Positions 25,098 to 59,829 of a stretch of DNA of 64,000 nt are shown in pieces. A model generated the notes under the pieces. That model had not been told where the DNA came from and searched no databases. It was given only the letters and a program-made list of their open reading frames with translations. How positions within the stretch are numbered: position 1 is the first letter of the stretch; each line of letters begins with the position of its first letter. Origin of the DNA: a virus; IMG/VR virus record IMGVR_UViG_3300017971_004694; one strand, written 5' to 3'. The position numbers were made by a program, and so were the translations under genes.

Positions 25098-25214
25098 AAT
25101 TTTTCTCCTTGTTGCCCTTGGTGCTCTCTCGGCACATAATCGGGCGGTTAGATTTTTGATATGTTTTGCAAAAGACTTCAACTCCTTTGACGAACATATC
25201 TTTCAACGTGGCCT
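25098..25214 (-). ncRNA. Structured ssb 5' leader (candidate cis-regulatory RNA)
   Basis: Hairpin 25158-25200, nested stems 25114-25145, and a 13-nt element complementary to the downstream hairpin loop. Confidence 0.55.
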
Positions 25215-25458: not shown

Positions 25459-25970
25459 TCTTTCTCTCCCCAGCTTGTTTTATCGGTGGTTACTTCAGAA
25501 AAGCCAGCAGATCGCATATGTTGCTGCTCCGCCTTGAGCTTATCTTTCATATACTGATGTGATTTCAGAAACCACTTATGCTTGTCTTCAAACCAGTGCT
25601 TCACAGTCTCGGCTTTCATCAAAGCCTCACAAGCCTCTACATAATCAGGATGACTTTCAGCATAAGCCTTTCTTTCCTCTACTGTCTTATGCCCCTCACC
25701 CTTGGCTGCTAAATATAGCTTCTGTCTCGTTGTATTTTTCTCAAGCTTCATCTTTTGCGTATGATGAATAAGAGCCGAATGAATTTCGCTACATCTATCA
25801 GCCGCCCTCAGATATACGCCCGCGAGTTTTTCAGCAATGGCTATATCAATATTAGTATCTTGAGGCAATTGCTCCGACATCTCTTTGAACTCCGATATAT
25901 CTATATTCATCGGGTCAAATGTGTCTAGTGCCAATGACTCTTTAAGCGTCAGACTTTTTTCCTCGGTCAT
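25452..25970 (-). CDS. Coiled-coil protein, possibly UvsY-like recombination mediator
   Basis: All-helical, KTVEERKAYAESHPDY resembles UvsY-type segment; near ssb and recA. Confidence 0.45.
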   Translation of the reverse strand: MTEEKSLTLKESLALDTFDPMNIDISEFKEMSEQLPQDTNIDIAIAEKLAGVYLRAADRCSEIHSALIHHTQKMKLEKNTTRQKLYLAAKGEGHKTVEERKAYAESHPDYVEACEALMKAETVKHWFEDKHKWFLKSHQYMKDKLKAEQQHMRSAGFSEVTTDKTSWGEKEW

Positions 25971-26235
25971 TTAATATTTCCCTTACCTGTCTTTCTACGC
26001 GCCTAAGGCGCTGGTTTATCATCAGATTTTGCAGAAAAAATATAACGCCCCAGCCAATCTGTCTCCCCGGAGGCGTTTTGATTAGAATAATGCAACCATC
26101 GCCATCCACTTCAAACATGTCTCTAAACTGATCTTTGCCTGAATACGTTCCATAAGTAAAAGACTCAACAATCTTTTTGTATTCTTCGTATTCTGCATTA
26201 GTCATATCGACTTGCTTGTAGTCAACGACTTTCAT
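25942..26235 (-). CDS. Hypothetical protein
   Basis: In-operon ORF. Confidence 0.65.
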   Translation of the reverse strand: MKVVDYKQVDMTNAEYEEYKKIVESFTYGTYSGKDQFRDMFEVDGDGCIILIKTPPGRQIGWGVIFFLQNLMINQRLRRVERQVREILNDRGKKSDA

Positions 26236-31022: not shown

Positions 31023-32321
31023 TTATCCCAGCGGATTCTCGGGAATCTCGCAGTTGTCGCCCGCTTCTTCTACGGGTTCTTCCTCAGTCTCGATCTGAGC
31101 CTGATTCAAAATTAGATCAAAAACTTTCCTATGCTTAATGGCGGCTATGACACCATCCATCAAACCTTCTTTTTGAATGTGGTCTTGGAGAGCCAACCTG
31201 CCCATATTCAGCCTCTCAGCTTCAGATTTTATAACCAAATCAAGCTCTTCTTGGGTGACCTTCATATTTTCAGCTTTGTAAATGGCTTCTAGAATAAACG
31301 ACCTTCTAATGTTCCTCTCAGCCATATCCCTGATGCGCTTTTTGGTTTCCTCATCAGGCTGGGATGCTTGAAGCTGGCCATATGTATGTTTCTCTTCATC
31401 TTCAACCCACTGCTCGGGAACTTCAAATTCGTGTGTTTCTACAAGCTTGTCTACAACCTGCTCTTCAAGAACTTGCCTTACTTGGTTCTCAGCTCTCTGC
31501 TTCGCATCCTTCTTGAACAATTCCATAAGCTCTTCATGGGAGGGGGCTTGCATCTTTTCAACAAGTTCCTCCTCATTGGGCTCTCTTCTTTCTGTGGCGA
31601 CAATAAGCTCAATTCTCACATCAGCTTCCTTGCCAGCATGCTCATGACCTTCAGGCATGGTGATTTTCTCAGTCTTCATCTTGCCAACCTTCATGCCAAC
31701 CAGATTCTCGCCAAACGGAGGTTCCTGCCCCTCGGCTATCAAGAAGTTGTTGCCCTCGCCTTTGGTAATCTCCTTTCCATCAATATGGACCCAGAAATTC
31801 ACTGTAGCCACAGAATTGAGCACAACCTCCTCAATCTTGGTCTCAACCATGTGTTGCGACCTTGCCTCTTCTATAATGTGTTCGAGGATGTGTTCTTCAT
31901 CCATTTTGGGTTGTGTAAGTTGCATGCCCACATAGCCACTTGGGACAATCTCGGGCTTGATTTCTGCATATATTTCACAGCAAAAAGTCCCGTCCATTTC
32001 AAAGTCCGCCTTTTCAATTTTGGGCTCGCCCAAGGGCTCTATCTTTTGTTCAAAACAAGCATAGAAGAAAGCCTCTTGAGATAGAATTGAAGACGCGGCA
32101 GCCTTCACATCATTGGGATGGTAAAGATCTACAAGGTGATCCGGAGCCTTCCCCTTCCTAAAGCCCTTGATTTGAACTTGCTTTCCGATTATATTACAAG
32201 CTCTTTTCATGGCCGCCTTAACAATTTCAATATCGGAGACTATTGTAAGCTTGCGCTTCAACCCTCCGAGATTCTCCATGGTTACTACGTGGTGCAGTTT
32301 ATCTTGTTCTTCTTCTGGCAT
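31023..32321 (-). CDS. tig: Trigger factor
   Basis: Ribosome-binding signature GFRKGKAP, FKBP-like middle domain, helical C-domain, 432 aa. Confidence 0.9.
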   Translation of the reverse strand: MPEEEQDKLHHVVTMENLGGLKRKLTIVSDIEIVKAAMKRACNIIGKQVQIKGFRKGKAPDHLVDLYHPNDVKAAASSILSQEAFFYACFEQKIEPLGEPKIEKADFEMDGTFCCEIYAEIKPEIVPSGYVGMQLTQPKMDEEHILEHIIEEARSQHMVETKIEEVVLNSVATVNFWVHIDGKEITKGEGNNFLIAEGQEPPFGENLVGMKVGKMKTEKITMPEGHEHAGKEADVRIELIVATERREPNEEELVEKMQAPSHEELMELFKKDAKQRAENQVRQVLEEQVVDKLVETHEFEVPEQWVEDEEKHTYGQLQASQPDEETKKRIRDMAERNIRRSFILEAIYKAENMKVTQEELDLVIKSEAERLNMGRLALQDHIQKEGLMDGVIAAIKHRKVFDLILNQAQIETEEEPVEEAGDNCEIPENPLG

Positions 32322-34719: not shown

Positions 34720-35628
34720 TTAGATGATCATGCTTCTTCTGTTATACACCCAGCGAAACACTAATGGCTGGCCTGTTTGTCTTCTGTCTCCTAAAGCTTG
34801 TGGAACTTGTGTAGGATCATAATTTTGAATGCTCTTGATCCATCTTTGTTCATTCATATCAAGGTAATAAGCGACTGCTATGCCCTTATCTGGATTATAG
34901 AAGGTTCTTAAATGACTTCCAGATATATAGGGGCTTGAGCCCAAAAGCTCACGGCCCTGAAGATATTTGACTACATCAACAGAACTACCCCATGGCCTAT
35001 TGATAGGATATACCGACTCGTCTCCATATCCATCTCTTCCATCCAGAACGATATATAGAGATCTGGGATTAAAGAATACGTTGTCGTCATTTGGCGAAGA
35101 TGCCTCGGGATCCACCGCAGAGGCAAGCTCTCTTTGTTCTGCCGGAACTGGCCCTAGCGTGACACATGTTCCTGGTCCATAGCCATCTGGCCCTGTTCTT
35201 GAGCATTTTATTTCGTAACATTTTAAAAGCTTGTCTGCATATCTAGCCGGTATTATAACTTCACCAATATCGTCGGGTTTATAACCATCAAGAACTACGG
35301 GATCAACACCATAAGCATCAACTACGACGCTTGCCCCACCATCAGCGGGAAGTCTCCTTGGGGCGCTAAGCTCCGAAGAATCGGTAGAATAAACTACGCT
35401 TAGCCTACCAGTATCAGCACCACTGACGGCAAGAACTCTTAGACGAACCGTGCCAGTTGTAGGCAAATCAATGGGAGCCAAATATATCTGAGAGAATAGA
35501 TTTGGCTCAGTGCCATCCAACGTAAAGAAGATGGTAGCCGGAACATTTGTGGTAAGTATTACATTATTAGGAATTCCGGATATAAAAAACGGACCCTGCT
35601 GGATAGCTGTGATGGTAATAACGGCCAT
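34720..35628 (-). CDS. Putative virion protein with Fn3-associated (chitobiase C-terminal-like) domain
   Basis: PATIFFTLDGTEP motif; three DGY motifs. Confidence 0.65.
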   Translation of the reverse strand: MAVITITAIQQGPFFISGIPNNVILTTNVPATIFFTLDGTEPNLFSQIYLAPIDLPTTGTVRLRVLAVSGADTGRLSVVYSTDSSELSAPRRLPADGGASVVVDAYGVDPVVLDGYKPDDIGEVIIPARYADKLLKCYEIKCSRTGPDGYGPGTCVTLGPVPAEQRELASAVDPEASSPNDDNVFFNPRSLYIVLDGRDGYGDESVYPINRPWGSSVDVVKYLQGRELLGSSPYISGSHLRTFYNPDKGIAVAYYLDMNEQRWIKSIQNYDPTQVPQALGDRRQTGQPLVFRWVYNRRSMII

Positions 35629-44080: not shown

Positions 44081-45901
44081 TTATGGTCTATATACTTTAA
44101 TTCTTCTATATAATATGCGCAAAGTTGTATTATCGAGGCCATTTGTAGTTATACCTATGCCACATTTTCCAGTGCTATGTGACGTGTCTACTATCATTCG
44201 GAAATCACCTGAAGATGCTCCCTGTGCATTATAACCTAGGATTTGTCCCTCTGCTCTAATACGTCCTACACCGCCACGACCTACACTGTCTGCTGGGCCA
44301 GGATTGCTTAAAATATCGCTATAAGATTCAGATCCAACGCATTTTGTTAAATCAAAGTCGGTCCCAGAACCAACATAACGCGCAAGATAAACATTGTCTG
44401 TTCCAGATGCGCGACAAAAAACGAATGGCCCGTGTGTCCCAGCTCCTATACTTACTGTCATCCAATCCGTTTCAACAATCACATCTTCGATATCAGGTAA
44501 ATCAAATGGCAAATAAATAGCTTGTTGAGCGCCTGTACCAGTTCCAACGGCCAGTGTAATATCAATCCAAGAAAGCCCGTAAAGATTAGAAACTGTAATT
44601 GCGCTACTTCCAACATTAACAATACTGCCAACCCAACCATTGGCATCCAAGTCGGGCAAATATCCATCGTATAGAAATTGACTAAGATCGGTGCCATTCC
44701 ATTCGGTTATTAAAGTTGGGCCTCCTGGCATAACTGAGCCCTTGACAGTCATCTGAGTGGCGAACCCATAATCATCCATATAATGTAATTCAGTATAACC
44801 ATCCACTTTTTGTGCATACAGGGCACCATAGCCCTCTTCATAAGGTGGATCTGATACTTTTTCGGGGAGAGGTAGATATCCATCTACTAATCCGGAACCA
44901 CCAGATATTTCAATGTCTGCCGTGCCATTGTTATCAGTTACAGCAACCCCAGAACCAAAAAAGTTAAACGCTTGTGGCTGGCCTATTAAATTATAGCCGT
45001 CATCTTGGATAGGGACCAGACCGCCACGAAAGCGAATCACTTTTAACTTTGTGCCCGATGGCACTGCAGCACTATTACTGCTAACTTTAATTTGAATTTT
45101 TATGTTCTTCGTTCCTGCCGTAAGCTTTGGTGTAATCACGGGGCCAAAAGAGCCAGCACCAAGAGATTCATAACCACTACTTTCACCAATTACGTCACTA
45201 GAAGGTATTAGAACCCCGCCTACATTATACTGCACATCAACTCTATTTGCCCCACCACTTCTGGTCAATCTGCCTTCTAGAAATATCATAATTTGTTCAT
45301 TGTTAAAAACATCAACATTAAGAGACAGAGCATCACCGCCACCATTATCAACATCTACAAATGATGTTGATGAGGTATTAAATTGGGCTAAAAGTTCTAC
45401 GGAATCCACCAGTATCCCGCCGGCTCCAGAGCCAGTGACAGCAGTAAGCATTAAGACTGGAGGATGATCTTGCGATGCTGTAACCTGAAAAGAAGTTCCG
45501 GCTAGAAGTTTCCCGTATGCCTTAACAGTATGGCTACCTGCAGAAAGCTCTACAACGTCGCGAAAAACCGGCTCTGTATAATTTCCGGTTGTGGGGCGTG
45601 TTTGCCACTGCTCGTTATAACCAATTGTTTGTTCGTTAGCCTCTCCTTCATCAAATACCAGTTTAATTTGGCCAGAAGAATTAGCACTTGGAGCGATTAA
45701 TTCCCCGCTGAATTGGATAGAGTATAGGCCGCTAACTTTTGCAGTAAAAGATAGAGAGCCGCTTTCCGGCATAATTTGATAGTCGGTGCCAAGTGGAGTA
45801 GTAACTACAAGATTGCTAGAAGGAACTCCATCAGACAATACGATTACATCGCCTGGCGCAGAAAATATTGCATCGCCTAGCTGATCAATTTTAATGGTCA
45901 T
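44081..45901 (-). CDS. Modular fibre/receptor-binding-like protein (paralog 1)
   Basis: Beta-rich; N-terminus MTIKIDQLGDAIFSAPG identical to paralog 2; unique beta-sandwich-like C-terminus. Confidence 0.7.
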   Translation of the reverse strand: MTIKIDQLGDAIFSAPGDVIVLSDGVPSSNLVVTTPLGTDYQIMPESGSLSFTAKVSGLYSIQFSGELIAPSANSSGQIKLVFDEGEANEQTIGYNEQWQTRPTTGNYTEPVFRDVVELSAGSHTVKAYGKLLAGTSFQVTASQDHPPVLMLTAVTGSGAGGILVDSVELLAQFNTSSTSFVDVDNGGGDALSLNVDVFNNEQIMIFLEGRLTRSGGANRVDVQYNVGGVLIPSSDVIGESSGYESLGAGSFGPVITPKLTAGTKNIKIQIKVSSNSAAVPSGTKLKVIRFRGGLVPIQDDGYNLIGQPQAFNFFGSGVAVTDNNGTADIEISGGSGLVDGYLPLPEKVSDPPYEEGYGALYAQKVDGYTELHYMDDYGFATQMTVKGSVMPGGPTLITEWNGTDLSQFLYDGYLPDLDANGWVGSIVNVGSSAITVSNLYGLSWIDITLAVGTGTGAQQAIYLPFDLPDIEDVIVETDWMTVSIGAGTHGPFVFCRASGTDNVYLARYVGSGTDFDLTKCVGSESYSDILSNPGPADSVGRGGVGRIRAEGQILGYNAQGASSGDFRMIVDTSHSTGKCGIGITTNGLDNTTLRILYRRIKVYRP

Positions 45902-45936
45902 ATGTTATGAAAACCTCTATTAAAAAATCTCCTTTC

Positions 45937-48900
45937 TTATCCTGGAAATTGCCAAACAGCAGATCTGCCTGGTATTCCTGCAGTTGATGCATTCATGGTA
46001 AGTGTGCCAACCGAAGCGACTCTAAGTCCAATTTCAACAGTATGCGGCCCAACGGTCAAATGTTCATCTCTAAGTGAACCTGAAATTCCTCCCCAAGCAC
46101 CAGATGCTATATAGGTAGCAGCGAAACGTCGCCAAGTGCCACTATCTATACGATACCCTAGCCAAGGCGTAGAAGCACCGGAACTTGAAAGAGACATGGA
46201 AGCCTCAATTAGAATTTCATCTCCATCTCTTATTACAATATTATGCGTATTTATTGTAACAAAAGATGTAGTAATACTTCCCACATCTGCGGAGTTTTTC
46301 TGAGCGTCTACAAGTGTTCCCCTAATGCCTTGGTTAGTAATCTGTGTAGACAGGCCATAGTCATCCATATAATGCAACTCGGTATAGCCGTCCACTTCTT
46401 TCGTATAAATTAAACCAGCGTCATCTAGTGGAGATGGGTCAGACATCTCATCCAAATTTACATAGCCATCTGGGAATACTGTGATTTCAGCAGCGCCATT
46501 GCTATCAGTTACACCTATATTGTTGCCAGTAAAGTTAAACGCCTGCGGTTGACCCAATAAGTCGTAGCCATCATTTTGAATTGGAACAAGGCCGCCGCGA
46601 TATCTTGTAATAAAGAGCGACGATACACCTCTTGTTGCATCGCCTTCGATTGCTAGTGTACCTGAAGAGACATATGCCTGAGCCTTGATTGTATGCGAAC
46701 CCGCAGATAGTCCGGCAATCGGAATGGCTATATCAAGGTTGGTACCTCCCGACGAATACGAAGCGCGTACGGATTCGTCAACAGGCGTACCATCTAGCAC
46801 TATGCGAGACCATGCGCCTGCAGCGGTAGAGGTCGTCGCCGTCGCCCGCAGATATACAAAGACCGTTTCGTCTTCAGACGTATCAAAGGTGAGTTCGAGC
46901 TTATTCGCGCCATCGTCAATATCGGTCCAAGTACCTCCGATACCAGTTTGATCGGTTGTCAACGAAATGCTATCTGTCAGGCTGCCTCCAGCCCCAGAGC
47001 CGGTGACGGCCTGAAGCCGGATAAATGGAGCACCAACGGGTCCGCTGCCCCCATTTATGTCCATATCATTGGTATATGAACCAGCAGTCACTTCTTTACA
47101 ATATGCCGTTACTTTATGTACACCAGCAACCAAATTAACATGACCTTCAAATACTGTATGATCCCAACCACCAGGAGCCTTCCGCGTCTGCCAGTCTTCA
47201 TTGTATCCGACGGACTGCTCTTCAGCCTCTCCCTCATCGAACACGAGTCTGAACTGTGCCGATGTGTGAGATTGACCACTGGGAACATTGACTATTACCC
47301 CAAGCATTGCTCGATATATACCAGATACCCTGGCAGTAAATTCCATATATGCATCAGGGCCAGCTGGGTCAGGAATTATCTGATTTTCGGCTCCGCTACC
47401 ATTTATGTCGATATTGGCTGATGGCTGGCCGTCGCTAATTTCAATGTAGTCGCCTGGTGCAGCAATGGCCCCATTTCCAAGTCGCCCCTGAACAGTAATC
47501 TGTGTCTCATTACCAGAACTATCACGACTAAATAATTCTGTAACACCGTTACTATCTTTAGCATAAAGAGATAAACTACCTACTTGCTGCGATAGTTCAA
47601 CCCCCTCCAATAATCTTATGCCTCTCAAAGAGTTATAAGTAGCAAGATATCCATCTTGGGTGATCTGAGTAACTTGACCATAATTATCCATAAAGAATAG
47701 TTCAGAAGTGCCATACGCATCATCATTCTTAGCATAAAGAAATCCACGATCATCGTCGGTGGCGTTTGGATCTGTGATTTCGGACAGGCTAACATAACCA
47801 TCAAGATCAAGTGCTTCGTCACCAGAAGCGTCTATTTGAACCGCGCCAGCATCAGCAGTTATCGCTCTGCCGCCTATATATGCCTGATCAAGTGTGCTCG
47901 CACCAGAAATCATGGAAGATTCCAGATCAGCAAGATACCCATCGACATAACCCCTAACAATAACAAGAAATGAAATTGGGCCCACATTTTGAGAGCCCCA
48001 TCTAAAATAAGCATCTCCATTGTGCAACGGCACCAAGGCCCTATTAGCATCACGCGCACTAAGATCACAACTTATAAAAGCTCCAGGGCTTGCTCCAGAT
48101 ATTGTTGGAGTATACAAAACTTCGCCGCTTTCAATAAAAAGATCATATATCTCACCGCCATCCGTATCCATATTGGCTGAAAAATCAACCTGCGCCGCAG
48201 AAATTGGCACTGCATCCCTTAGATCGTTTTGTGTGCCGCCACCTGGACCTGCACCAGATGTACTAAAAGAATACCATGTGTTTGCTGTTGGTGTTATCTC
48301 TGTTGCCCCACCACTACCACTATCATACAACCACAATGTACTATCTGTGGCATCTGGATAATCAAACTTGTTGCCAGTTTGACTTACTATTCTTAACTTA
48401 GAAGAACCATCAATATAATAAACAGCCCCTAAGTATTTATAAATCGAATAATCTGCTGGCCCAAACCCAGGGTGCTGGTCAGAAGCTATAATACCAAAAT
48501 AACCAGAATTATTAGTATCAGGAACTGCATAATTATAATACCATGTGCCACTAGTAAGAGCAGCGCTAGGTTCGCGCCCGCCCAATCCCGTAGTGCTTAT
48601 ATCCATCGAGATAGGGCTAGTTGCCTGATAGCGCACCCCATTATTAAATGTCAGCCGCAAATCATCGTTAGCTCCTGGTGCTGCCACATATTCATACTGA
48701 TTGTCGCTAACATTATCCACAATAGGAGCATTTTCTGGTTGAATATAGCCGCCTCGGAATCTTATTACTTGTAACCTAGCTCCCGCCAAAATTTGTATTG
48801 AAGTTGAAGAAGTTTGCGCCTGAACCATAATGGTCACAGAACCGGCTGAAAGTTCACCAGTGATTACTGGGGTAAATGAACCAAGTGCTGTTGTGTACCC

Positions 48901-50193
48901 CGATGAATTACTTTCTCCCTGTACTGATAAAGGATATGCAGTTGCCCCTACCAAATACTGAATATCGATTCTGTTTGCGCCACCAGAATGAACAGATTTA
49001 CCTGACAGCACTAGCATAATGCGCTCGCCTTCAACAACATCTACAGTTACCGACAGAGAATCCCCACTACCATTATCAACATCAACGAATGAGGTGCTGG
49101 ATGTTGTGAAAGTCGATGCCAAAGCCACCTCTTCGACCAGTATACCTTCTGCTACGCCATTAAAGTTTATCGTAGCGGTCCCATCAATATCTGTAATGTC
49201 AACATTGGGTCCAACAAAATCAAATGCCTGTGGCTGTCCCACAATATCATAACCATCTTTCCGAATTGGAACAAGACCGCCACGGAATCTCCGCACCCAG
49301 GTACTACATTTTGGATAATATCCCCAACCAGACAGCCACTCGGTATCACCACCTAAAAAGTTCATGGGCTGGTTGTTTACCTCACCTGCAAAATCAATTG
49401 TATGACTACCAGCTGATAGCGTAAGAATCTTGGTGCCAACAAAAGTATATTCGTATTCGTTGGAGCAGAAGTCGCACATTACCCATGATCCTGAGTCAAC
49501 ACGATATAACACCGACCGGCCTGTTGGGGTACTTATGTTCTTATAGGTAGGAATAAACCAACCAATCTCTACCTGTTCATCCTGATAGGTAGTAAATGTT
49601 AAAGACAAATCAGTCAGTAGCGTTGCCGTAGCATTAACAGATATAGTCTGGTCAGATGTTTTTTCTGCTGTGCTCAGTAATGTACCCCCAGCTCCAGAAC
49701 CCGAAATTAACTGCAACGTTACTTGAGGAGCAAGAACAGGAACAAGACCAACGATCCTCCACGCAGTTCCGTTAGTTTCTTGTCCATACACTTTAAGCGT
49801 GTGAGTACCAGCCGTTAAATCTACTTCTCCGGAAAGTGTTGGCAAAACATATGCGTTGCTCGCTGTGCGAACTTCCCAGTCAGAGTCATCGCCAACTGTT
49901 TGTTCTGCACTGTCATTTTCATCAAATAGAAGTTTATATCGCACACTTACAGCGCCAGTACCAAATAACGTTATATTGACTGTAACCAAATATTTTCCAG
50001 CTACAGGAACATCAAAAGTATGATAATTAGTATCTCCAGAGCCACCAGGTGGCGTATCAGGCCATGGTGAAACCTGCACAGAGCCAGCAGGAGCATCATA
50101 GTTGACTCCTGGAGGATTTTCACCGTGTATAACTATTAGAGAGCCTGGGGCAGAAAATATGGCATCTCCTAATTGATCGATTTTAATGGTCAT
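45937..50193 (-). CDS. Modular fibre-like protein (paralog 2)
   Basis: Repeated RFRGGLVPI..DG..QPQAF.F.G and ELF.MD..G..TQIT modules. Confidence 0.75.
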   Translation of the reverse strand: MTIKIDQLGDAIFSAPGSLIVIHGENPPGVNYDAPAGSVQVSPWPDTPPGGSGDTNYHTFDVPVAGKYLVTVNITLFGTGAVSVRYKLLFDENDSAEQTVGDDSDWEVRTASNAYVLPTLSGEVDLTAGTHTLKVYGQETNGTAWRIVGLVPVLAPQVTLQLISGSGAGGTLLSTAEKTSDQTISVNATATLLTDLSLTFTTYQDEQVEIGWFIPTYKNISTPTGRSVLYRVDSGSWVMCDFCSNEYEYTFVGTKILTLSAGSHTIDFAGEVNNQPMNFLGGDTEWLSGWGYYPKCSTWVRRFRGGLVPIRKDGYDIVGQPQAFDFVGPNVDITDIDGTATINFNGVAEGILVEEVALASTFTTSSTSFVDVDNGSGDSLSVTVDVVEGERIMLVLSGKSVHSGGANRIDIQYLVGATAYPLSVQGESNSSGYTTALGSFTPVITGELSAGSVTIMVQAQTSSTSIQILAGARLQVIRFRGGYIQPENAPIVDNVSDNQYEYVAAPGANDDLRLTFNNGVRYQATSPISMDISTTGLGGREPSAALTSGTWYYNYAVPDTNNSGYFGIIASDQHPGFGPADYSIYKYLGAVYYIDGSSKLRIVSQTGNKFDYPDATDSTLWLYDSGSGGATEITPTANTWYSFSTSGAGPGGGTQNDLRDAVPISAAQVDFSANMDTDGGEIYDLFIESGEVLYTPTISGASPGAFISCDLSARDANRALVPLHNGDAYFRWGSQNVGPISFLVIVRGYVDGYLADLESSMISGASTLDQAYIGGRAITADAGAVQIDASGDEALDLDGYVSLSEITDPNATDDDRGFLYAKNDDAYGTSELFFMDNYGQVTQITQDGYLATYNSLRGIRLLEGVELSQQVGSLSLYAKDSNGVTELFSRDSSGNETQITVQGRLGNGAIAAPGDYIEISDGQPSANIDINGSGAENQIIPDPAGPDAYMEFTARVSGIYRAMLGVIVNVPSGQSHTSAQFRLVFDEGEAEEQSVGYNEDWQTRKAPGGWDHTVFEGHVNLVAGVHKVTAYCKEVTAGSYTNDMDINGGSGPVGAPFIRLQAVTGSGAGGSLTDSISLTTDQTGIGGTWTDIDDGANKLELTFDTSEDETVFVYLRATATTSTAAGAWSRIVLDGTPVDESVRASYSSGGTNLDIAIPIAGLSAGSHTIKAQAYVSSGTLAIEGDATRGVSSLFITRYRGGLVPIQNDGYDLLGQPQAFNFTGNNIGVTDSNGAAEITVFPDGYVNLDEMSDPSPLDDAGLIYTKEVDGYTELHYMDDYGLSTQITNQGIRGTLVDAQKNSADVGSITTSFVTINTHNIVIRDGDEILIEASMSLSSSGASTPWLGYRIDSGTWRRFAATYIASGAWGGISGSLRDEHLTVGPHTVEIGLRVASVGTLTMNASTAGIPGRSAVWQFPG

Positions 50194-50235
50194 GTTTTAA
50201 AAAACCTCTGTTTTATGCTCTGCCTTTCTCCTTTC

Positions 50236-52296
50236 TTATGATCTGTATATGGCAATATACCAATCGCCAGATGAGCCCGAAGCTACAAATTCCGCCCTAT
50301 TAAGCGACGTATTATAAGTCCATTCGATTTTACTAACTCCAAGAGAGCTAACATATCGCATTAATACGCCATTCCTATAAACATCCAAATCTCTTAAAGA
50401 ACGCCTACTAGGTGCAATCATTGGCACTTGTGAAAGCTGAATGAATGTTTCAGTTCCATCTGTAGATGCCGGATCCAACTCATCTTCATAAGCAGTTGCG
50501 CCTATATTGAGTTTTCCATTATTTGTAATTTGCACTGATTGACCAGCATGATTCATATAGAATAATTCAAGGGCTGCAGGATTGTATCCGTCATAGGCAT
50601 CTAAAACGTAAATCTCACCCTTGTTAAACTGCGGCTGCGGATCTTCAATCAAATAATGTAAACCAAGGTAGCCGTCAAGGTTCATAGCCTCATAGGCATC
50701 ATATGCGTCAACATGGAAAGGTGTTCCTGGTACTATAACAATAGTATTTCCACTGTTATAAGCTTGCTGAAGAGTTCCACCACCTGCACCACCTGGTAAG
50801 TTGCCAACTTGAACTTTCTTTTTATTATTGGAATCGGCACTATCTTCTATAAGAAGCAAATCAGCTGCCACTGGAACTGCCTTTGCTGCTATGGCAGCAA
50901 TTTCGCCAGCAACATTGTCATGAATTGCATCCGGATCGTTTCCGCCACCCCCAATTATAGAGCCCTTATCGGTAATTTGTATTGCAGATCCGTAGCTATC
51001 CATATAATGGAATTCTGTATATCCATCGATATCTTTCGTATACATAATTCCAATATCTGGAGATGGAGTCGGATCGGGAATTTCTCCCAACGCCAAATAT
51101 CCATCGGCTATAATATTGTCACCAGTTCCTCGTACTTGCACTGCTCCAAGAACAGGATTGTTGATTTCAGCGGTTCCTGCTGGATCTCCTGGCCCAGTGC
51201 CTGTATCAATAGTAATGTCTATATTGTGCGTGCCAGCAGATAAATTAGTAACAACATATGAGAAAGATACGTTAGTTGCTTCCAATCCGCCACCGAGAAC
51301 AGCCGCTAATATTGTAGTATAATAAGTATATACGGTAGTGCTCCCTACCGTTAAATGAATATATATATTTTCATATGGATTTGGTGGCACAGTAGTTGGC
51401 TTAACCGAACCTGAAAAAGATACCAGTATATCTTCTCCAGCCTTTGTTGTAATGCTTGTGAAAACAACAGGAGGAGAAGGAAATGAACCAGTTGGTATGC
51501 CTGTTGCTCCTTTTAGTGCATCGTCAACAGTGCCAACCAAACCGGACCCCATATCTGACATTTGATACGCCTGTCCATAATCGTCCATAAAGAACAACTG
51601 GTTATATCCATCTACCGACTTCACATATAATAGGCCCTTTCCAGGAATTGGCTCAGGATCATAGCCATCGACAAGTCCGATGTAGCCGTCTATATTAAGT
51701 GCCTCGTAGCCGTATGCGTCAACAATAATTGGTCCATCTACTAAATAGAGATCAGCACCATTAAGATAAGCCTGCTGTAATGTAAGAGAGCCACCGCCAC
51801 CACCGCTAATTTGTCCATTACTAGTTATCTGTATATCATTACCTGAGCTGTCACGCGCAAAAAGCTCAGTATTACCGGAGACTGTTTTTGCAAACAGCGT
51901 GAAGCTACCAGGCTGGTTAGGTAGATCTTCGCCCTCAAGAAGTCTAACGCCACGGAGGCTGTTATAAGTAGCTAAATACCCATCTTGCGTAATTTGAGTT
52001 ACTTGACCATAACTGTCTATAAAGAATAATTCGGTTGTACCGTATGCATCGTCTTCTTTCGTATATATGCTGCCATAATTGTCCAATGTGGGAGGATCCA
52101 CATCCCTTTCTGGCATAGGCAAGTAACCATTAACTAATCCAGAACCTCCAGAAGCAACTCCAAATTCGAGTCCATCTTCTCCAGCTTTTACTATTATTGC
52201 TTTGCCACTCTGTCCAGCATAACTGCTAGGAGTATCCAGCAAATCTGTAAATTCTGAATAGCCATCGTCAATCTGAAAAGGCTGTAATTTAACCAC
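50236..52296 (-). CDS. Modular fibre-like protein (paralog 3)
   Basis: Same modules; GTG start with GGAGG RBS. Confidence 0.75.
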   Translation of the reverse strand: MVKLQPFQIDDGYSEFTDLLDTPSSYAGQSGKAIIVKAGEDGLEFGVASGGSGLVNGYLPMPERDVDPPTLDNYGSIYTKEDDAYGTTELFFIDSYGQVTQITQDGYLATYNSLRGVRLLEGEDLPNQPGSFTLFAKTVSGNTELFARDSSGNDIQITSNGQISGGGGGSLTLQQAYLNGADLYLVDGPIIVDAYGYEALNIDGYIGLVDGYDPEPIPGKGLLYVKSVDGYNQLFFMDDYGQAYQMSDMGSGLVGTVDDALKGATGIPTGSFPSPPVVFTSITTKAGEDILVSFSGSVKPTTVPPNPYENIYIHLTVGSTTVYTYYTTILAAVLGGGLEATNVSFSYVVTNLSAGTHNIDITIDTGTGPGDPAGTAEINNPVLGAVQVRGTGDNIIADGYLALGEIPDPTPSPDIGIMYTKDIDGYTEFHYMDSYGSAIQITDKGSIIGGGGNDPDAIHDNVAGEIAAIAAKAVPVAADLLLIEDSADSNNKKKVQVGNLPGGAGGGTLQQAYNSGNTIVIVPGTPFHVDAYDAYEAMNLDGYLGLHYLIEDPQPQFNKGEIYVLDAYDGYNPAALELFYMNHAGQSVQITNNGKLNIGATAYEDELDPASTDGTETFIQLSQVPMIAPSRRSLRDLDVYRNGVLMRYVSSLGVSKIEWTYNTSLNRAEFVASGSSGDWYIAIYRS

Positions 52297-52378
52297 TTTG
52301 TGGTACCTCCGAGAAAATATATTTCTTAAACCTTACCTTTCTATTATCTATGAATTCCTGGCAGAAAAATTGCACTCT

Positions 52379-52417
52379 CTACCACTCGGAAATTTGAAAT
52401 GATTTTACCTTTGCCAC
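52379..52417 (-). pseudogene. Vestigial 12-codon paralog start (MAKVKSFQISEW)
   Basis: RBS region and N-terminus mirror those of 50236..52296 (GGAGGTAAACCTCAAAGTG vs GGAGGTACCACAAAGTG; MVKLQPFQID). Confidence 0.55.
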
Positions 52418-52458
52418 TTTGAGGTTTACCTCCGGTAAATATTTATATTTCTCCTTCC

Positions 52459-55400
52459 TTAACTTACTATAGCCCTATCAGTAACGCGGCGCCAATTAGT
52501 CCCATCAGAAAATGCCGGAACTGCGCCACCAGATTCGTCTGGCACAAAAACCATTTGTCCGGCTGGAGACGCAGCTGGCAATTGTGCTACATTATAGCTA
52601 GGCAACAGATTATAAAGCGCCCCTCTTCTCGTAATTTGAACGGACTCATCATAATTATCTACGTGATGAAGCTCAGAATACCCATCTACATCTTTGGAAT
52701 ACAACAAACTGGCGTTGTCCAAACCTACCGGATCGGAAATTTCATCCAGAGTAATATATCCATCTATCTCAAGTGCTTCATCACCTGATGCATCAATAAT
52801 AACAGAACCAGCATCAGCTGTGATCAACCTTCCCGCTCCAGGGCCACCCTCATCATATGCTTGGTCAAGCGTATTATGAGTTACAGCAAGCGAGCCGCCT
52901 TGAGTAATTTGCGTAATTTGACCCGAATGATCCATATATAATAGTTCTAGGCCATAACCAGGGACATCATATACAAACAACTGCCCCTTGTTAAATTGCG
53001 CATCTGGATAACCATCCAAATAATGTAAACCAAGATAGCCATCAAGATTTAGTGCTTCGTAAGAATCATATGCGTCAATGTGTACTGGCACCCCAGGCCA
53101 AACTATTATCGTGTTTCCGTTGGCATAGGCTTGCTGCAAGGTTACATTGTGCGGGTTAGAAGTATCATTGGCATGATTGTTAAAAACCGATAGTGTTGCA
53201 TAGCTATCAAGCAACGTCTTTTCAGCAAGAGGATCAATATCCGCCAAAGTGGCATAGCTATCAAGCAACGTCTTTTCAGCAAGAGGATCAATATCCACCA
53301 AAGTGGCATAGCTATCAAGCAACGTCTTTTCAGCAAGAGGATCAATATCCACCAAAGTGGCATAGCTATCAAGAAGCGCCTTTTCAGCAAGAGGATCAAT
53401 ATCCACCAAAGTGGCATAGCTATCAAGAAGCGTGCTATCAATAAGAGTTGCATCTGATACCAAAGCATTAAGCTCAGCAAGAGTGCTACTGGTGTGTTCC
53501 GAACCACCCAAAGCGTGCTTGGCTAGAGTTCCACCCTGAGTAATTTGTGTAACCACCCCAGCATGATCCATGTAGAGCAGTTCGAGCCCAGAACCAGGAA
53601 CATCAAATACGAACAATTGACCTTTATCAAACTGAGCATCTGGGTAGCCGTCAAGATAATGTAAACCAAGGTAGCCATCAAGATTAAGGGCCTCATAAGA
53701 ATCATAGGCATCAATGTGAACTGGCATTCCAGGTATTATTATAATGCTGTTTCCACTAATATAAGCTTGTTGAAGCGTTACATTGTGAGGGTTGGACATA
53801 TCCGAAGTATGATTTGTTAAAGCCGTTGTTGTCGCATAACTATCAAGTAGCGTATCATCAATAAGGGTTGCGTCCGACACCAAAGCATTGAGTTCAGCAA
53901 GAGTGCTGCTGGTATGTTCAATTCCACCCAAAGCGTGTTTGACCAGAGTTCCATCCTGAGTCAATCTTACCGCAACACCATAATTATCCATATAGAATAG
54001 CTCAGTATAGCCGTCCATAAGCTTCCCGTATAGATAACCGTCATATCCATCTGGATCCACTGATGGATCTGCCACCTGCTGTTCTATTCTTATATAATCA
54101 AGATCTCCAATTTGTATATCTGCTACGCCATTATTATCAGCTACTATAACCCTGCCTGTAAAGTTAAAGGCGGCTGGAATATCAACAATGGTTGTTCCCT
54201 CATCTTGAATTGGAACCAAACCACCACGGAACTGTAGAACTTGTAGTGTTCCATAGGCATCAACGGTTAAAGTGCCAGCGCCATCCTTCATTATTTGAAA
54301 GCTGGCTGTGTGATTTCCAGCCGTAAGAGGTGGTGTTACATAGCTCTTACTAATGTCTTTAGCTTGGCTCAAACCTTCTCTTACACCGTCTTGATATCTA
54401 TATCCATCAACAGCAAAAGAAGTAAAAGCATTAACAACAGAGGTTGTACTAATACTTCCACTATAGACAAGCAGAACTTCTTCATTTTCTACAGTATCAA
54501 AGCTCACATTGAGTTCGGTAACAGTTTCCCAAGTATCTACGGACACATAGTTTTTACTAACTGTGAGCATAGTTTGGTCAGACAAAGCGCCGCCTGCTCC
54601 AGAACCTGCAAGATTTATAGCCACAAGGTTTACATAATCATCTGTGTTGATTTGAGCACCTGAGCCGCCGCCGTCATTCTGGTATTGTACAGTAATCTTG
54701 TGATTTCCGAAGCCCATTTCAACCATATGAGTAGTAAAAGAAGCGGAATAGTGCTCACCAGAAGTAACACTAATAATATTCCAAGCATCATTATCAGTTG
54801 GTTCTATAATTTGTTCTGTAAATCCATTGTAGTCGCCTTTATCTACAATAACACGGAAATTGGTGCGTTGAGAAACTCCAGAAGCCTGATACACCTGGAC
54901 ATTGAACGTAAGAATGTAGCTGCCCGCCACAACAGCATCAAAATATCCGTCGGCTCCAGTTATATCTACGAAGGATGTAGATGTTAGACCAACGGCAACA
55001 GAAGGTACGAATTCTATTACTGCGTCTGCGAATCCAGAGTTGGTAACAGCAGTGGTATTTAGTCTGCCACCAAGCGTTACCTGTGTCTCATTCCCGCCAC
55101 TATCTTTTGTAAATAGCTCGGTTATACCGTTGCTGAGTTTGGCGTAGAGTGAAACTCTTCCAACCTGATCTGTAAATTCTGTTCCCTCAAGAAGACTTAC
55201 GCCTCTAAGAGAATTGTAAGTGGCCAAATATCCGTCTTGTGTAATTTGAGTGATCTGGCCACTGTCATCCATATAAAATAGTTCAGAGGTTCCGTATGCG
55301 TCATCATTTTTGGAATATAGGAAACCCTTGTTGGCTACATTTGTAGGATCAGTAATCTCATTGAGCAGCATATAGCCGTCAAGTTCCAGCGCATCATTTC

Positions 55401-57831
55401 CAGAAGCATCCATAACCACAGCGCCTGCGTCTGTTGTTATTACTCTGCCAGCTCCTGCGCCACCTTGATCATATGCCTGGTTCAAAGTGTTAGCGCCAAG
55501 AGTTGATCCATCCTGGGTAATCTGCACTTCGTTGCCAGCAGCATCCTGGTAGAAAAGCTCTGTGTCGCCGCCATCATCTTTTGCATAGATGTGGCCTTCA
55601 TTTGGTAATCCTGTGGGAGCAGCTATTTCAGCAAGACTCAAATATCCATCAATGCCAATAGCTTCGTCGCCACCGGCATTTACAATAACTCCACCAGAGT
55701 CTGCTGTAATAATCCTGCCTGCTCCAGCACCACCTTCATCATAGGCTTGATCCAGGGTATTACCATCACCTCCAACAGGAGAGCCCTTGTTGGTAATTTG
55801 TGTAGCAAGACCGTAATCGTCCATGTAGAACAATTCGGTGTATCCGTCAATTTCTCTGGAATATACCAATCCAGCATCTGCAAGATTGGATGGGTTAGAA
55901 ATCTCATCTAATGTTAAATAACCATCTATTTCAATAGCCTCATTCCCCGAGGCATTAATAATCACAGCACCAGCATCGGCAGTAATAACTCTGCCCATAT
56001 TGTATGCCTGATCCAACGAGTTAATGGCAATTTCCGGATCGGTTTTATACCTTGCGGCATACCAAGTTCCGGCTACGCCAGAAGCAACGAACTCAATGCG
56101 GTTTAGTGTAGCATTATATGTCCATTCAGTCTTGCTGGCTCCCAGAACAGCCACCCAACGCATTCTTGCGCCATTCTGGAAAACATCCAAAGCATAGCCA
56201 GAAGGCATATTATTTTGAACCATAGGAGTTCCAGTAAGCGGCAGAGAGGTCTCAATTCCGGTAGTAGTTGCCGGATTAAGCTCGTCAAACTGCTCTAATA
56301 CGGTGTAGCCGTCTATGCCAAGATAGCCATCTGAGGTTATTTGGATTACATTGCCATCGCCATCCTTGTAGAAAAGCTCGGTGTTGCTGGCAATTTCCTT
56401 GGTGTACAGAAAGCCCTTATAAGGGGCAGTAGTAGGATCGGAAGGCTGCATGAATAGTCCGACACCTCTAAGGCTCTCAAAAGTGTCTAAATATCCATCG
56501 TTTGTAATACGAGTTATAGCACCAGCATCATCTATGTAATGAAGCTCTACTGCTCCGTCCACGGTTTTTGCGTATAGGTAGCCATCGTTAGCTGTTGAAG
56601 CAGTTGGATCAGCACCTTGCGTTGGTAGAGCCAAAAACTCTTCGGTTTCTACAACAAGCTTTTCGTCGCCGCCGGGATTTAACTCATCAAATACAATGTT
56701 CAAACCAGGGGACATCTTATCTTCAAGAAATCCTGGTGTTGTATCTGTAGCGCTTTTCTTAAGCTCATAGGCGTCCGCGAGTGCGGACATATTTAAGAAG
56801 CCGTTTTTGGTAATCTGAACGACATTGCCAGAATCATCTTTATAGAAAAGCTCTGTGTCACCGGAGTCATCCTTGGTATATACGCTTCCAACCCCAACTT
56901 CTACGACAGGATCAGAGGCTATTTCACTAAGGGCGAGATAACCATCAAGCAGGCGAACATTGCCTGACGTAAGCAGTACGTCTCCAGTATCTGCCAACAG
57001 AGCGTAATTGAAGGGCAACGTGCCGCTTGTAGCTTTGTATGCCACCATGAGGCCACTTACTGGAACGCCAGGATCCAGTGTCTCGGCACGGAAAAGATCA
57101 GTCTCAGAATCTGACGCATTGCCAGGCAAAATATCCACATAAGAATAGACGCCCAAAGCTGTGAACCCACCTGCGGGTAGGGCGCTTATAAGCTGCGAAG
57201 CTACCGAAATCGGCTCGGTATATCCATCCTGGGCAAGTGCAAATCTTACTCCAATTTGGTTATTTACGTCTACGGCAGTTATGTCGGTCTCAAGAATTGG
57301 TTCTTGGTTTAGATCTCCAGTAGCAGCTAGGCTAAGTCCACTATCACCCCCGGATACATTCAGAAGAATAGGTCCAGAGTCAACGGCAATAATTCTTCCA
57401 GAACCTGCGCCCCCTTCGTCATACGCCTGATCAAGAGTATTTCCTATGGCAGAGTTGGTATCAATGGCAACAAAGGCATCATACATGGCCTTGGACCAAC
57501 CAATTGTTGATCCGTATTCGTCTTCCTCTCCTGTAGCTGGTATACGGATATTGAGATTGGCAGTTCTGACCGCAGCTATGGCGATGTCCGTCACTGAGCC
57601 GTTTACTGTGAGGCGGATTCGATAGGAACCTACACTATCTACTGTTTTTAGAGTAGGGGTTTTGGTTGTTGGGTTCTGGATCCAAGCGGCTGAGCCTGGT
57701 GGAGCAGACAAAAGCGCCCAGAGCCTCGTAGAAGCGCCTACTCCTACATCATTCAGATTTACGTCAACGCCTAGCGGCAAATTAGTAACGCTGCCGACTT
57801 GACCGTTAATTTCTATGATTGCTGTGGCCAT
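52459..57831 (-). CDS. Long modular tail-fibre-like protein (paralog 4)
   Basis: Ig/PKD-like N-terminus, many TLDQAY and ELFY.D modules, C-terminal AFSDGTNWRRVTDRAIVS. Confidence 0.8.
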   Translation of the reverse strand: MATAIIEINGQVGSVTNLPLGVDVNLNDVGVGASTRLWALLSAPPGSAAWIQNPTTKTPTLKTVDSVGSYRIRLTVNGSVTDIAIAAVRTANLNIRIPATGEEDEYGSTIGWSKAMYDAFVAIDTNSAIGNTLDQAYDEGGAGSGRIIAVDSGPILLNVSGGDSGLSLAATGDLNQEPILETDITAVDVNNQIGVRFALAQDGYTEPISVASQLISALPAGGFTALGVYSYVDILPGNASDSETDLFRAETLDPGVPVSGLMVAYKATSGTLPFNYALLADTGDVLLTSGNVRLLDGYLALSEIASDPVVEVGVGSVYTKDDSGDTELFYKDDSGNVVQITKNGFLNMSALADAYELKKSATDTTPGFLEDKMSPGLNIVFDELNPGGDEKLVVETEEFLALPTQGADPTASTANDGYLYAKTVDGAVELHYIDDAGAITRITNDGYLDTFESLRGVGLFMQPSDPTTAPYKGFLYTKEIASNTELFYKDGDGNVIQITSDGYLGIDGYTVLEQFDELNPATTTGIETSLPLTGTPMVQNNMPSGYALDVFQNGARMRWVAVLGASKTEWTYNATLNRIEFVASGVAGTWYAARYKTDPEIAINSLDQAYNMGRVITADAGAVIINASGNEAIEIDGYLTLDEISNPSNLADAGLVYSREIDGYTELFYMDDYGLATQITNKGSPVGGDGNTLDQAYDEGGAGAGRIITADSGGVIVNAGGDEAIGIDGYLSLAEIAAPTGLPNEGHIYAKDDGGDTELFYQDAAGNEVQITQDGSTLGANTLNQAYDQGGAGAGRVITTDAGAVVMDASGNDALELDGYMLLNEITDPTNVANKGFLYSKNDDAYGTSELFYMDDSGQITQITQDGYLATYNSLRGVSLLEGTEFTDQVGRVSLYAKLSNGITELFTKDSGGNETQVTLGGRLNTTAVTNSGFADAVIEFVPSVAVGLTSTSFVDITGADGYFDAVVAGSYILTFNVQVYQASGVSQRTNFRVIVDKGDYNGFTEQIIEPTDNDAWNIISVTSGEHYSASFTTHMVEMGFGNHKITVQYQNDGGGSGAQINTDDYVNLVAINLAGSGAGGALSDQTMLTVSKNYVSVDTWETVTELNVSFDTVENEEVLLVYSGSISTTSVVNAFTSFAVDGYRYQDGVREGLSQAKDISKSYVTPPLTAGNHTASFQIMKDGAGTLTVDAYGTLQVLQFRGGLVPIQDEGTTIVDIPAAFNFTGRVIVADNNGVADIQIGDLDYIRIEQQVADPSVDPDGYDGYLYGKLMDGYTELFYMDNYGVAVRLTQDGTLVKHALGGIEHTSSTLAELNALVSDATLIDDTLLDSYATTTALTNHTSDMSNPHNVTLQQAYISGNSIIIIPGMPVHIDAYDSYEALNLDGYLGLHYLDGYPDAQFDKGQLFVFDVPGSGLELLYMDHAGVVTQITQGGTLAKHALGGSEHTSSTLAELNALVSDATLIDSTLLDSYATLVDIDPLAEKALLDSYATLVDIDPLAEKTLLDSYATLVDIDPLAEKTLLDSYATLADIDPLAEKTLLDSYATLSVFNNHANDTSNPHNVTLQQAYANGNTIIVWPGVPVHIDAYDSYEALNLDGYLGLHYLDGYPDAQFNKGQLFVYDVPGYGLELLYMDHSGQITQITQGGSLAVTHNTLDQAYDEGGPGAGRLITADAGSVIIDASGDEALEIDGYITLDEISDPVGLDNASLLYSKDVDGYSELHHVDNYDESVQITRRGALYNLLPSYNVAQLPAASPAGQMVFVPDESGGAVPAFSDGTNWRRVTDRAIVS
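53198..53430. repeat. 54-bp tandem coding repeat (4 full units plus partial)
   Basis: gcatagctatcaag recurs at 53198, 53252, 53306, 53360, 53414; encodes LLDSYATLVDIDPLAEK(T/A). Confidence 0.95.
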
Positions 57832-57915: not shown

Positions 57916-59829
57916 TTATATGTCTAATCTAGCTTTTAAAGCCCCTTCTTCAATGAGCATTCTCCTTGGTTCAACTGCTTTGCCCATAAGGATGCCAAAA
58001 ATCCTATCAGCTTCTAAATAATCAGTAATTTCCATTTTCACAAGTTCCCTAGTTTTTGGATCCATGGTTGTATTCCACAACTGAGTAGGGCTCATTTCTC
58101 CAAGCCCCTTAAATCTTTGGATATTCCCCTTAAACTTCTTTTCTTTGATAAAATCTTTGAGAGACTTATCATCTTTTAAATAATAGCTTTTTCCGCGAAT
58201 ATCTATTCTGTAAAGTGGAGGTTGAGCCACATATATGTTGCCGTTCATAATCAACTGAGGCATCTGTCTGAAGAAAAAGGTCAACAATAATGCGCGGATG
58301 TGAGAGCCATCAACATCTGAGTCAGTCATTATGATAATTTTGTTGTAGCGAATCTTAGCTAAATCGATGCTTCTACCAATTCCAACACCTATGGCTGTGA
58401 TAAGATTACCGATTTCCTTGTTGCTCATCATTTTACTGAACTCGTTCTTCTCGATGTTGAGAACTTTACCACGAAGAGGCAGAATAGCTTGAAACATTCT
58501 GTCCCTGCCCTGCTTGGCTGAACCACCAGCTGAATCTCCCTCGACAATAAATATTTCACAAATTTCTGGATCTTTGGAACTGCAATCCGCAAGTTTCCCA
58601 GGAAGCAGCATTCCGCCATCCTTGAGCACGGATTTTCTAACTGCCTCCTTGGCTTTCTTGGCTGCCTCTCTGGCCTTGAAGGCATTTACACATCGAGTCA
58701 CTATTTTCTTGGAAAGTGGTGGATTTTTCTCCAAATAGTCCATAAGTTTCTCAGCAACAGTGCTCTCTACAGCCGTCCTGGCGTCCTCAGACACCAATTT
58801 TTCCTTGGTCTGCGAGCTAAACTTGGGGTTTGGGTGCCTGATGCTAAGAACTGCTATTAAGCCTTCCCTAATGTCGTCTCCAGACAGCGAGATTTTAAGG
58901 GATTTTGGGAGATCCGAGCTTGCTATGAAGCCATTTACGGTTCGAGTTATAGCAGTTTTGAAGCCAACCACATGAGATCCGCCGTCTGGGTTGGGGATAT
59001 TATTCGTATAACACTGCAATATTTCATCATCTTCCGCGCTGTCGAGCCACTGGAAAGCAACATCTACTACAATTTTGGATCCATTGCCAACTTCTTGCGT
59101 AAATTCAAAGGGTTTGGTTAATAGTTTGCCTGGAGCAAGAAACTCCACGAAGTTAGAGATGCCCTCATCGCTTCCAAACACCTCTTTATCTTTAGCTTTT
59201 TCATCAATGAACTCAATGGTTAGGCCCTTACAGAGAAAAGAAAGCTCTCTGAGCTTTTGTTTTACTCTTTCGCCGTCGAACTTAATTACATGATGGAATA
59301 TGTTGTTGTTGGGGACAAATCTAATTGTGGTTCCTCTGCCCTTTCCAGTTTTTTCATCCACGCCCGCCACTTTTTTACCTTTTTCGTAGGCAACGGTGTA
59401 TTCTTTGCCGTCTCTACGCACAGTTGCCCTGAGACGAGTCGAAAGAGCATTAACAACGGACACACCAACTCCATGTAATCCACCAGAGACAGCGTAAGCC
59501 TTTTTGTCAAACTTTCCTCCAGCATGTAGCTTTGTGAGAACGGCCTCCAGCGCCGTCATCTTTTCCTCTTTCATGTATTTCACAGGGATGCCACGACCAT
59601 TATCGGCTACGGAGGCGGATCCGTCCTTGTGGAGGGAAACCACAATCTTGTCGCAGTGACCAACCATGAACTCATCTACGCTATTGTCGAACACTTCCAT
59701 GATCATGTGGTGGTACCCAGTGCCGTCTTCTGTGTTGCCGATATACATGCCTGGATTCTGCACGACTCCTTCAAGACCCTTGAGAACCTTGATGTCATCG
59801 TAGCTGTCTTTCTTTTTTCTTGGCGTCAT
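57916..59829 (-). CDS. gyrB: Type IIA topoisomerase B subunit (GyrB-like)
   Basis: EVFDNSVDE, DNGRGIP, LHAGGKF, GGLHGVG, VEGDSAGG, PLRGK, MTDSDVDG, RFKGLGEM. Confidence 0.95.
   Translation of the reverse strand: MTPRKKKDSYDDIKVLKGLEGVVQNPGMYIGNTEDGTGYHHMIMEVFDNSVDEFMVGHCDKIVVSLHKDGSASVADNGRGIPVKYMKEEKMTALEAVLTKLHAGGKFDKKAYAVSGGLHGVGVSVVNALSTRLRATVRRDGKEYTVAYEKGKKVAGVDEKTGKGRGTTIRFVPNNNIFHHVIKFDGERVKQKLRELSFLCKGLTIEFIDEKAKDKEVFGSDEGISNFVEFLAPGKLLTKPFEFTQEVGNGSKIVVDVAFQWLDSAEDDEILQCYTNNIPNPDGGSHVVGFKTAITRTVNGFIASSDLPKSLKISLSGDDIREGLIAVLSIRHPNPKFSSQTKEKLVSEDARTAVESTVAEKLMDYLEKNPPLSKKIVTRCVNAFKAREAAKKAKEAVRKSVLKDGGMLLPGKLADCSSKDPEICEIFIVEGDSAGGSAKQGRDRMFQAILPLRGKVLNIEKNEFSKMMSNKEIGNLITAIGVGIGRSIDLAKIRYNKIIIMTDSDVDGSHIRALLLTFFFRQMPQLIMNGNIYVAQPPLYRIDIRGKSYYLKDDKSLKDFIKEKKFKGNIQRFKGLGEMSPTQLWNTTMDPKTRELVKMEITDYLEADRIFGILMGKAVEPRRMLIEEGALKARLDI

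Follow-up and report, generated by a model that had tools for sequence, protein, structure and literature searches.

Asp-Gly-Tyr on the outer virion proteins of a huge-phage clade: a putative sequon for tyrosine O-glycosylation by a phage GT4 enzyme

In the outer particle proteins of an uncultured huge phage and its relatives, the tripeptide Asp-Gly-Tyr (DGY) occurs about 15-20 times as often as expected by chance. It is strict at its three positions, is gained and lost at homologous sites, is distributed over the outer proteins of the particle and co-occurs with a glycosyltransferase gene (GT4) located behind the tail genes, and this mark is a real clade trait, not a repeat artefact. DGY is probably a sequon for Tyr-O-glycosylation of outer virion proteins by the phage GT4, a putative role read from the sequences, and the sequon is relaxed to D-[G/A/S]-Y, rarely with Pro next, in the subclade of the genome considered here. 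The more far-reaching reading, namely a whole-particle Tyr-linked glycan coat in a widespread uncultured huge-phage clade, written at strict DGY by a soluble GT4, appears to us evenly balanced between right and wrong.

The window analyzed is a stretch of 64,000 nucleotides within a 116-kb virus record (IMGVR_UViG_3300017971_004694), which is itself a fragment of a ~452-kb genome from sediment/seawater metagenomes. The major capsid protein of this phage is 52% identical to gp27 of phage G and has 396 capsid relatives in IMG/VR. Four DGY-rich minus-strand genes form a second appendage cluster adjoining gyrB (Table 1), the synteny is kept in relatives, and orthologues of the first gene after gyrB, encoding the 1790-aa protein, are found at the same position; the GyrB-like gene is outside the DGY mark. 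The four paralogues are presumably fibre proteins, as suggested by their composition, their modular repeats and weak PHROG tail-fibre matches (E 5e-4 and 5e-3). A Pfam search of the four returned zero matches, neither the 1790-aa protein nor the 942-aa tail protein has a match among cultured phages, and Atlas feature searches led to unnamed viral clusters only, the one hint, a weak one, being C1q (13% of the members of a single cluster). The 302-aa protein is unrelated to the ~65-aa module of the paralogues, and its orthologue in genome G004 has two DGY. Upstream of the window, the same record has further DGY-bearing genes in the vicinity of the capsid gene (L001:2985-5209, 6745-7059, 7223-7864), and over the record as a whole the low-Lys/Arg proteins hold 54 DGY vs 2.7 expected, the other proteins 8 vs 3.5. 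Within the 1790-aa gene, a tandem repeat of 18 aa (window 53150-53420, minus strand; ~4.5 copies, DSY in each) is the point at which public assemblies break.

Table 1. Features of the window that carry or border the DGY mark
Feature	Position in window	Strand	Content
1790-aa appendage/fibre-type protein	52459..57831	-	22 DGY; 37 D-[small]-Y; 11 copies of the ~65-aa hairpin module
686-aa paralogue	50236..52296	-	9 DGY; 5 module copies
1418-aa paralogue	45937..50193	-	7 DGY; 3 module copies and other repeated domains
606-aa paralogue	44081..45901	-	4 DGY; 1 module copy
Example of a ~65-aa module copy	55753..55950	-	DGY at N-terminal strand and hairpin turn; D-x-Y at second turn
302-aa protein	34720..35628	-	N-terminal CHB_HEX_C/Fn3-associated Ig-like domain; 3 DGY
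GyrB-like gene (named from its sequence)	57916..59829	-	0 DGY; synteny marker upstream of the DGY cluster

A sequence-only reading of the window had counted 42 DGY in 4500 aa of the four paralogues (4, 7, 9 and 22) and three more in the 302-aa protein, against a composition-based expectation of about 2. The recount gave exactly these numbers in 4,500 aa, and the computed expectation is 2.16 for the four ORFs (Poisson log10 p = -38) and 0.11 for the 302-aa protein. In 2,000 shuffles the five proteins reached maxima of 3, 4, 4, 6 and 2, none near the observed counts, and DGY is the most over-represented tripeptide in these proteins. D-[G/A/S/D/N]-Y takes 74 of the 227 Tyr, and the count of DGF is zero. 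However, 33 of the 42 sites are located inside copies of one ~65-aa module, so that the shuffle statistic overstates independence; outside this module there are nine sites (seven independent) vs 1.05 expected (p about 1e-4).

The mark extends well beyond the window and, contrary to its initial assignment to fibre proteins, beyond that class of protein. DGY-marked types comprise sheath, baseplate wedge, large baseplate and fibre-type proteins as well as a 213-aa head protein encoded near the capsid gene, these virion roles, like those of the unmarked proteins below, being assigned from gene order and sequence (Baseplate_J excepted). The 213-aa protein carries 89 DGY vs 3.2 expected, with the mark in 66 of 67 homologues; its homology to gp26 of phage G is weak (pairwise E 0.003), hence we only infer a "decoration" role for it. 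The major capsid protein has no DGY in 63 homologues (2.3 expected), the tape-measure-, tube- and hub-type genes have none, and the mark is absent from protease and inner-head proteins. Relatives picked by their capsid gene show the excess, as do the low-Lys/Arg proteins of two near-complete genomes (47 vs 3.7 and 85 vs 4.9 expected), and the GC content of DGY-bearing genomes spans 0.24-0.56. The tail module of phage G shows no excess (3 vs 2.1 expected). In the non-virion proteins of three genomes, avoidance of DGY was not seen (observed/expected 5/3.3, 12/10.1 and 7/8.2).

The behavior of the tripeptide is that of a short linear motif with little tolerance. In 308 outer tail proteins of relatives (455,000 aa), 1,426 DGY were counted, i.e., 14.6x the expectation, while DGF (1.1x), DGW (0.3x), EGY (0.3x) and NGY (1.1x) are not enriched and the other DGx tripeptides range from 1 to 2.3x, none higher. 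Upstream of 80 GT4 loci there are 901 DGY vs 54.5 expected, with permutations giving 36-97. Pro is avoided ~8-fold right after the Tyr of DGY, being found at +1 in 0.4% of cases, compared with 3.4% for other Tyr, 3.7% for xGY and 2.9% for DGx. A baseplate-associated family unrelated to the ~65-aa module, with 93 orthologues, has 528 DGY spread over 49 alignment columns, none of which is universal (maximum 65 of 93 orthologues), and Asp and Tyr covary in it with a pooled odds ratio of 16.9 vs 0.8 for the control. Homologous sites share ancestry, so the p-values for such site counts are inflated, but proteins unrelated to one another point the same way. A conserved baseplate-associated protein (L120:16180-19008, residues 599-670) also contains a dockerin-like/EF-hand Ca-binding pair (Pfam E 1e-8), which is unusual in a virion protein.

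The candidate writer is encoded next to the marked genes. The search for glycosyltransferases, one of the checks proposed in the sequence-only reading, found a GT4/GT2 block in relatives and none in the 116-kb fragment, which has no GT4 gene, so that its presence in this genome is suggested by the relatives. Among 20 large relatives, GT2 genes are present in 15 and GT4 genes in 15, clustered just past the last tail gene and hence linked to structural genes, and the sugar block at this position also has methyltransferase, aminotransferase and epimerase genes. The first gene of the block, a GT4, is the only gene common to all 11 sugar blocks examined; it is present in 11 of 11 large relatives, six of which were picked through GT4 itself, and almost all loci found by the tail gene and having enough downstream DNA have it as well. 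GT4 is absent from phage G. Cellular organisms have no close orthologue (best E 2e-29, identity at most 36%), and the neighborhoods of distant bacterial GT4 homologues bear no DGY mark (66 vs 44 expected; GDY 77). With two Rossmann domains, Pfam matches to PF00534/PF13439, conserved E-x7-E and H-x-R-K motifs and a model of GT-B fold (pLDDT 88), GT4 is predicted to be a phage-specific retaining GT-B enzyme. The structures nearest to the model are 7qsg and, second among PDB entries, chlorovirus B736L (PDB 3OY2; TM about 0.70, 14% identity), and viral glycosyltransferases are found in BFVD; the likeness to B736L and the viral enzymes is at family level only, and the fold neighbors act on varied acceptors.

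DGY and GT4 are also lost together. In a screen in which the most diverse tail-gene representatives were taken and then those without DGY, the DGY-free phages P0149, P0156, P0167/P0168 and P0170 had no GT4 at the slot after the tail gene. In a tree built without the DGY columns, these fall into four groups that branch separately from within the DGY-positive phages, and their sisters P0151, P0137, P0154 and P0173 have orthologous GT4 (344-409 bits) and a tail-region excess of DGY (13/0.9, 5/0.9, 7/1.2 and 7/1.3 observed/expected). The available tail DNA of the DGY-free lineages holds 1 DGY vs about 2 expected in total, these contigs being fragments with 0.1-0.9 expected DGY each, so that GT4 could lie elsewhere. 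One of these lineages (L333, L334) has its tail gene away from the baseplate operon, beside a VapE-like gene; this tail gene is longer (about 1,960 aa) and Gly/Ser-rich in P0168. The correspondence has exceptions: the excess is weak in the GT4-positive phages L312 (4/0.9), L330 (5/0.9) and L335 (3/0.5), and the DGY-rich locus L289 has no GT4 within 7 kb. L312/L225 (IMGVR 3300034198_033630, 3300032265_003945), in which GT4 looks intact (51 of 53 conserved residues) and the tail DGY count is 4/0.9, is a candidate for motif decay or change. In two phages that stay DGY-rich, the GT4 match is split over two frames (G031 (L316) C1:165172-166292; G029 C1:126306-127391), which reflects a frameshift, a sequencing error or an intron.

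The form of the enzyme and the breadth of the motif change together in the subclade closest to this genome, in which a fused double GT4 is found. There, DAY (25 vs 5.3 expected) and DSY (20 vs 7.7) are in excess, matching the relaxed D-[G/A/S]-Y of the window; in single-GT4 phages DSY is depleted (16 vs 73.5 expected). This motif shift is a single event.

Three-position strictness, Asp/Tyr covariation, avoidance of Pro at +1, turnover, restriction to the outer virion and co-loss with GT4 all favor an enzyme-read sequon of the kind proposed in the sequence-only reading. From the options listed there, O-glycosylation emerges as the favored one, while adhesion, cross-linking and metal binding leave the order of residues, the Pro rule and the co-loss unexplained. 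In the infected cell, GT4 would recognize DGY in exposed turns or loops and place a first sugar on the Tyr hydroxyl, which the variable downstream GT2/GT4, methyltransferase, aminotransferase and nucleotide-sugar epimerase genes might then serve to extend. The resulting glycan coat on head-associated, sheath, baseplate and fibre proteins could shield the particle or tune its adhesion in sediment, and selection would keep adding DGY sites for as long as the enzyme is kept and stop once it is lost. As DGY is not avoided in non-virion proteins, glycosylation by GT4 requires one more assumption: either the enzyme works on particles during their assembly, or sugars added at stray sites are tolerated.

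A different modification of the Tyr (phosphate, sulfate, AMP/UMP, oxidation or a cross-link), made by a host or an unrecognized phage enzyme, or a GT4 sugar on a neighboring residue such as the Asp, is an unlikely alternative. Kinases and sulfotransferases typically act at sites with acidic residues ahead of the Tyr, the lack of DGF enrichment makes the Tyr hydroxyl seem important, and the head module encodes a tyrosine phosphatase domain of the DSP type (L002:5604-7130, G000 24604-26130, upstream of the window), in a protein with an additional weak peptidoglycan-binding match. However, other families of Tyr-modifying enzymes are lacking or sporadic in the genomes searched. Sulfotransferase genes, which the sequence-only reading had also proposed to look for, were found in 0 of 5 genomes, Fic genes in 0 of 12, GT8 genes in 0 of 12 and genes for PMT (PF13231, a membrane GT-C family) in 0 of 5, these being four near-complete relatives and phage G; kinase matches are sporadic (3 of 12), and GT32/44-type DxD enzymes (PF04488) occur in 2 of 12 only, the conserved enzyme of the clade being a GT-B. 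A tyrosinase search was run without a positive control. In addition, the trait extends over the full GC range of the clade, which disfavors a single host enzyme.

DGY might instead be a docking motif for non-covalent binding by a phage decoration or chaperone protein or by a host surface factor, with GT4 merely a neighbor, which we consider rather improbable. Strictness over three residues and restriction to the surface suit a binding motif equally well, and so does the lack of DGY avoidance in cytoplasmic proteins. Against docking, no gene of the tail-linked block other than GT4 is common to all relatives, and in L331 and L334 the GT4 slot and DGY are lost while the neighboring conserved genes are kept. 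Moreover, with dozens of sites on each protein, spread over unrelated folds, stoichiometric occupancy would be difficult.

It is quite improbable that DGY serves unmodified as a structural or adhesive motif, i.e., an Asp-Gly tight turn with a packing or hydrogen-bonding Tyr, or a means of cation binding or mineral sticking. In favor of this idea, the sites cluster in the ~65-aa module and many follow a DG turn, one module column is nearly fixed (31 of 34 xGx sites), some sites of the baseplate family lie in dockerin/EF-hand-like loops, and the phage originates from sediment and seawater. The single-sequence fold of a 271-aa fibre segment is poor (pLDDT 39) and hints that DG forms a two-residue hairpin turn. 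However, DGY never coincides with either of the module's two structural Tyr columns, at least four DGY positions in the module are variable, and at homologous sites Asp and Tyr are gained or lost jointly, as seen in the D/Y tables for fixed-Gly (xGx) sites (10/0/1/35, 21/1/2/22 and 19/6/1/25). The alternation between Tyr-free and Tyr-bearing forms at homologous turns, described in the sequence-only reading, is real, while the form beginning with KEIDGY that is quoted there is a composite, the window having REIDGY and KEVDGY. PDB and PHROG searches with the module gave no significant match. Among 119 database homologues of the 686-aa protein, eight are DGY-rich (66 vs 3.3 expected) and the remaining 111 show no excess (7 vs 13.5 expected), most of the latter matching through another repeat; four of the 111, from other phages, carry the same hairpin module without DGY. 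The motif is thus neither confined to one conserved, buried position of a single repeat nor required there for the fold, for instance as a Ca-binding DxDxDG loop: DGY-free homologues exist, and the 49 sites of the baseplate family lie elsewhere. Sites in unrelated folds undergo turnover, the remaining DGx tripeptides reach no more than 2.3x, and adhesion needs neither the exact order, nor the rule on Pro at +1, nor co-loss with GT4. One 858-aa homologue (P0020) has six EGY (expected well under 1) and no DGY; in this other phage lineage the motif may have shifted, or the EGY may stem from a local repeat.

That the excess arises artificially from repeat expansion, composition or assembly, as the inflation of the window count by repeats might suggest, is so improbable as to be negligible, since the excess recurs outside the module in unrelated proteins, in capsid-picked relatives, at the 80 GT4 loci and in the 49-column baseplate family, ten different codon combinations encode DGY, which excludes a DNA repeat as its source, and contigs from public runs of three studies (two of which may be the source of the stretch) match it with at most four substitutions, so that the stretch is no assembly artefact.

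A sugar written on DGY by GT4 would have partial parallels only. Asp-led sequons are known from Campylobacter (D/E-X-N-X-S/T) and from Bacteroidota (D-(S/T)-(A/I/L/V/M/T)). DGY shares with them the short linear form, the upstream Asp and the disfavor of Pro beside the acceptor, but they use another acceptor residue, belong to periplasmic systems of the host, and Glu is no substitute in DGY. In mycobacteriophages Che8, Corndog and Myrna, phage-encoded glycosyltransferases are described as glycosylating the virion (Freeman et al., 2023, as related in PMC12363180 and PMC12619734), and as far as these accounts go, glycosyltransferases near structural genes and a proposed coating of outer virion proteins in the host cytoplasm are shared features. 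However, the mycobacteriophage glycans sit at the C-terminal ends of the capsid and tail tube subunits (PMC12619734), while DGY, known here from sequences, is a Tyr tripeptide inside the chain that recurs many times in the sheath, baseplate, fibre and head-associated proteins, and major capsid and tube are unmarked. Chloroviruses glycosylate their capsid by virus-encoded glycosyltransferases at atypical sequons (PMC9614988) and likewise have a multi-glycosyltransferase block with methyltransferases and sugar-nucleotide enzymes, but their glycans are N-linked to Asn of the major capsid protein and the host is eukaryotic. Since the targets differ from those of mycobacteriophage and chlorovirus glycosylation, the DGY clade is not counted as a member of either type. 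The Moraphages (PMC12619734) belong to a different lineage.

Bacterial Tyr O-glycosylation has precedents in S-layer glycoproteins (PMC4232325) and in the toxins PaTox, Afp18 and YeGT (PMC12645811, PMC11152714). In both, a Tyr hydroxyl carries the sugar, as is proposed for DGY. S-layer glycans, however, are put together outside the cytoplasm, on a lipid carrier, and the toxins, which are of the GT-A DxD type, modify a single Tyr of Rho GTPases; no enzyme of this type is conserved among the 12 genomes of the clade that were searched. The cytoplasmic Tyr glycosyltransferases known are GT-A DxD enzymes, not GT4 (PMC11152714). The sequence-only reading knew of no described phage system with this signature. 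Searches of the literature gave no hit on a DGY motif or on tyrosine glycosylation in phages, and the papers searched contain neither a DGY sequon nor a GT4 Tyr transferase.

If glycosylation of DGY by GT4 is confirmed, it would provide a new rule of protein glycosylation, with Tyr in DGY as acceptor and a soluble GT4 as writer, and this clade of phages of 400-500 kb, found in sediment, soil and water, would have dense virion glycosylation as a core trait. If the whole-particle coat holds as well, GT4 would become the first cytoplasmic Tyr-O-glycosyltransferase to be directed by a sequon, the breadth of which co-evolves with the enzyme, and DGY a minimal portable glyco-tag; a three-residue cytoplasmic tag could be of use in glycoengineering. 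The hypothesis can be tested without a phage isolate, as it would take one 380-aa enzyme and a short peptide. Whatever reads DGY, the mark is already of help in telling which of the many hypothetical genes in these phages encode outward-facing virion proteins.

Other genes of the window and of the sugar-block loci may be recorded here. The window encodes a phage trigger factor (31023-32321; Trigger_N and Trigger_C) and a DnaE-type DNA polymerase III alpha subunit (26918-30286). Behind the sugar-transferase block of several relatives, as in L330 (15815-17188) and L339 (19830-21185), lies a tubulin/TubZ-like gene.
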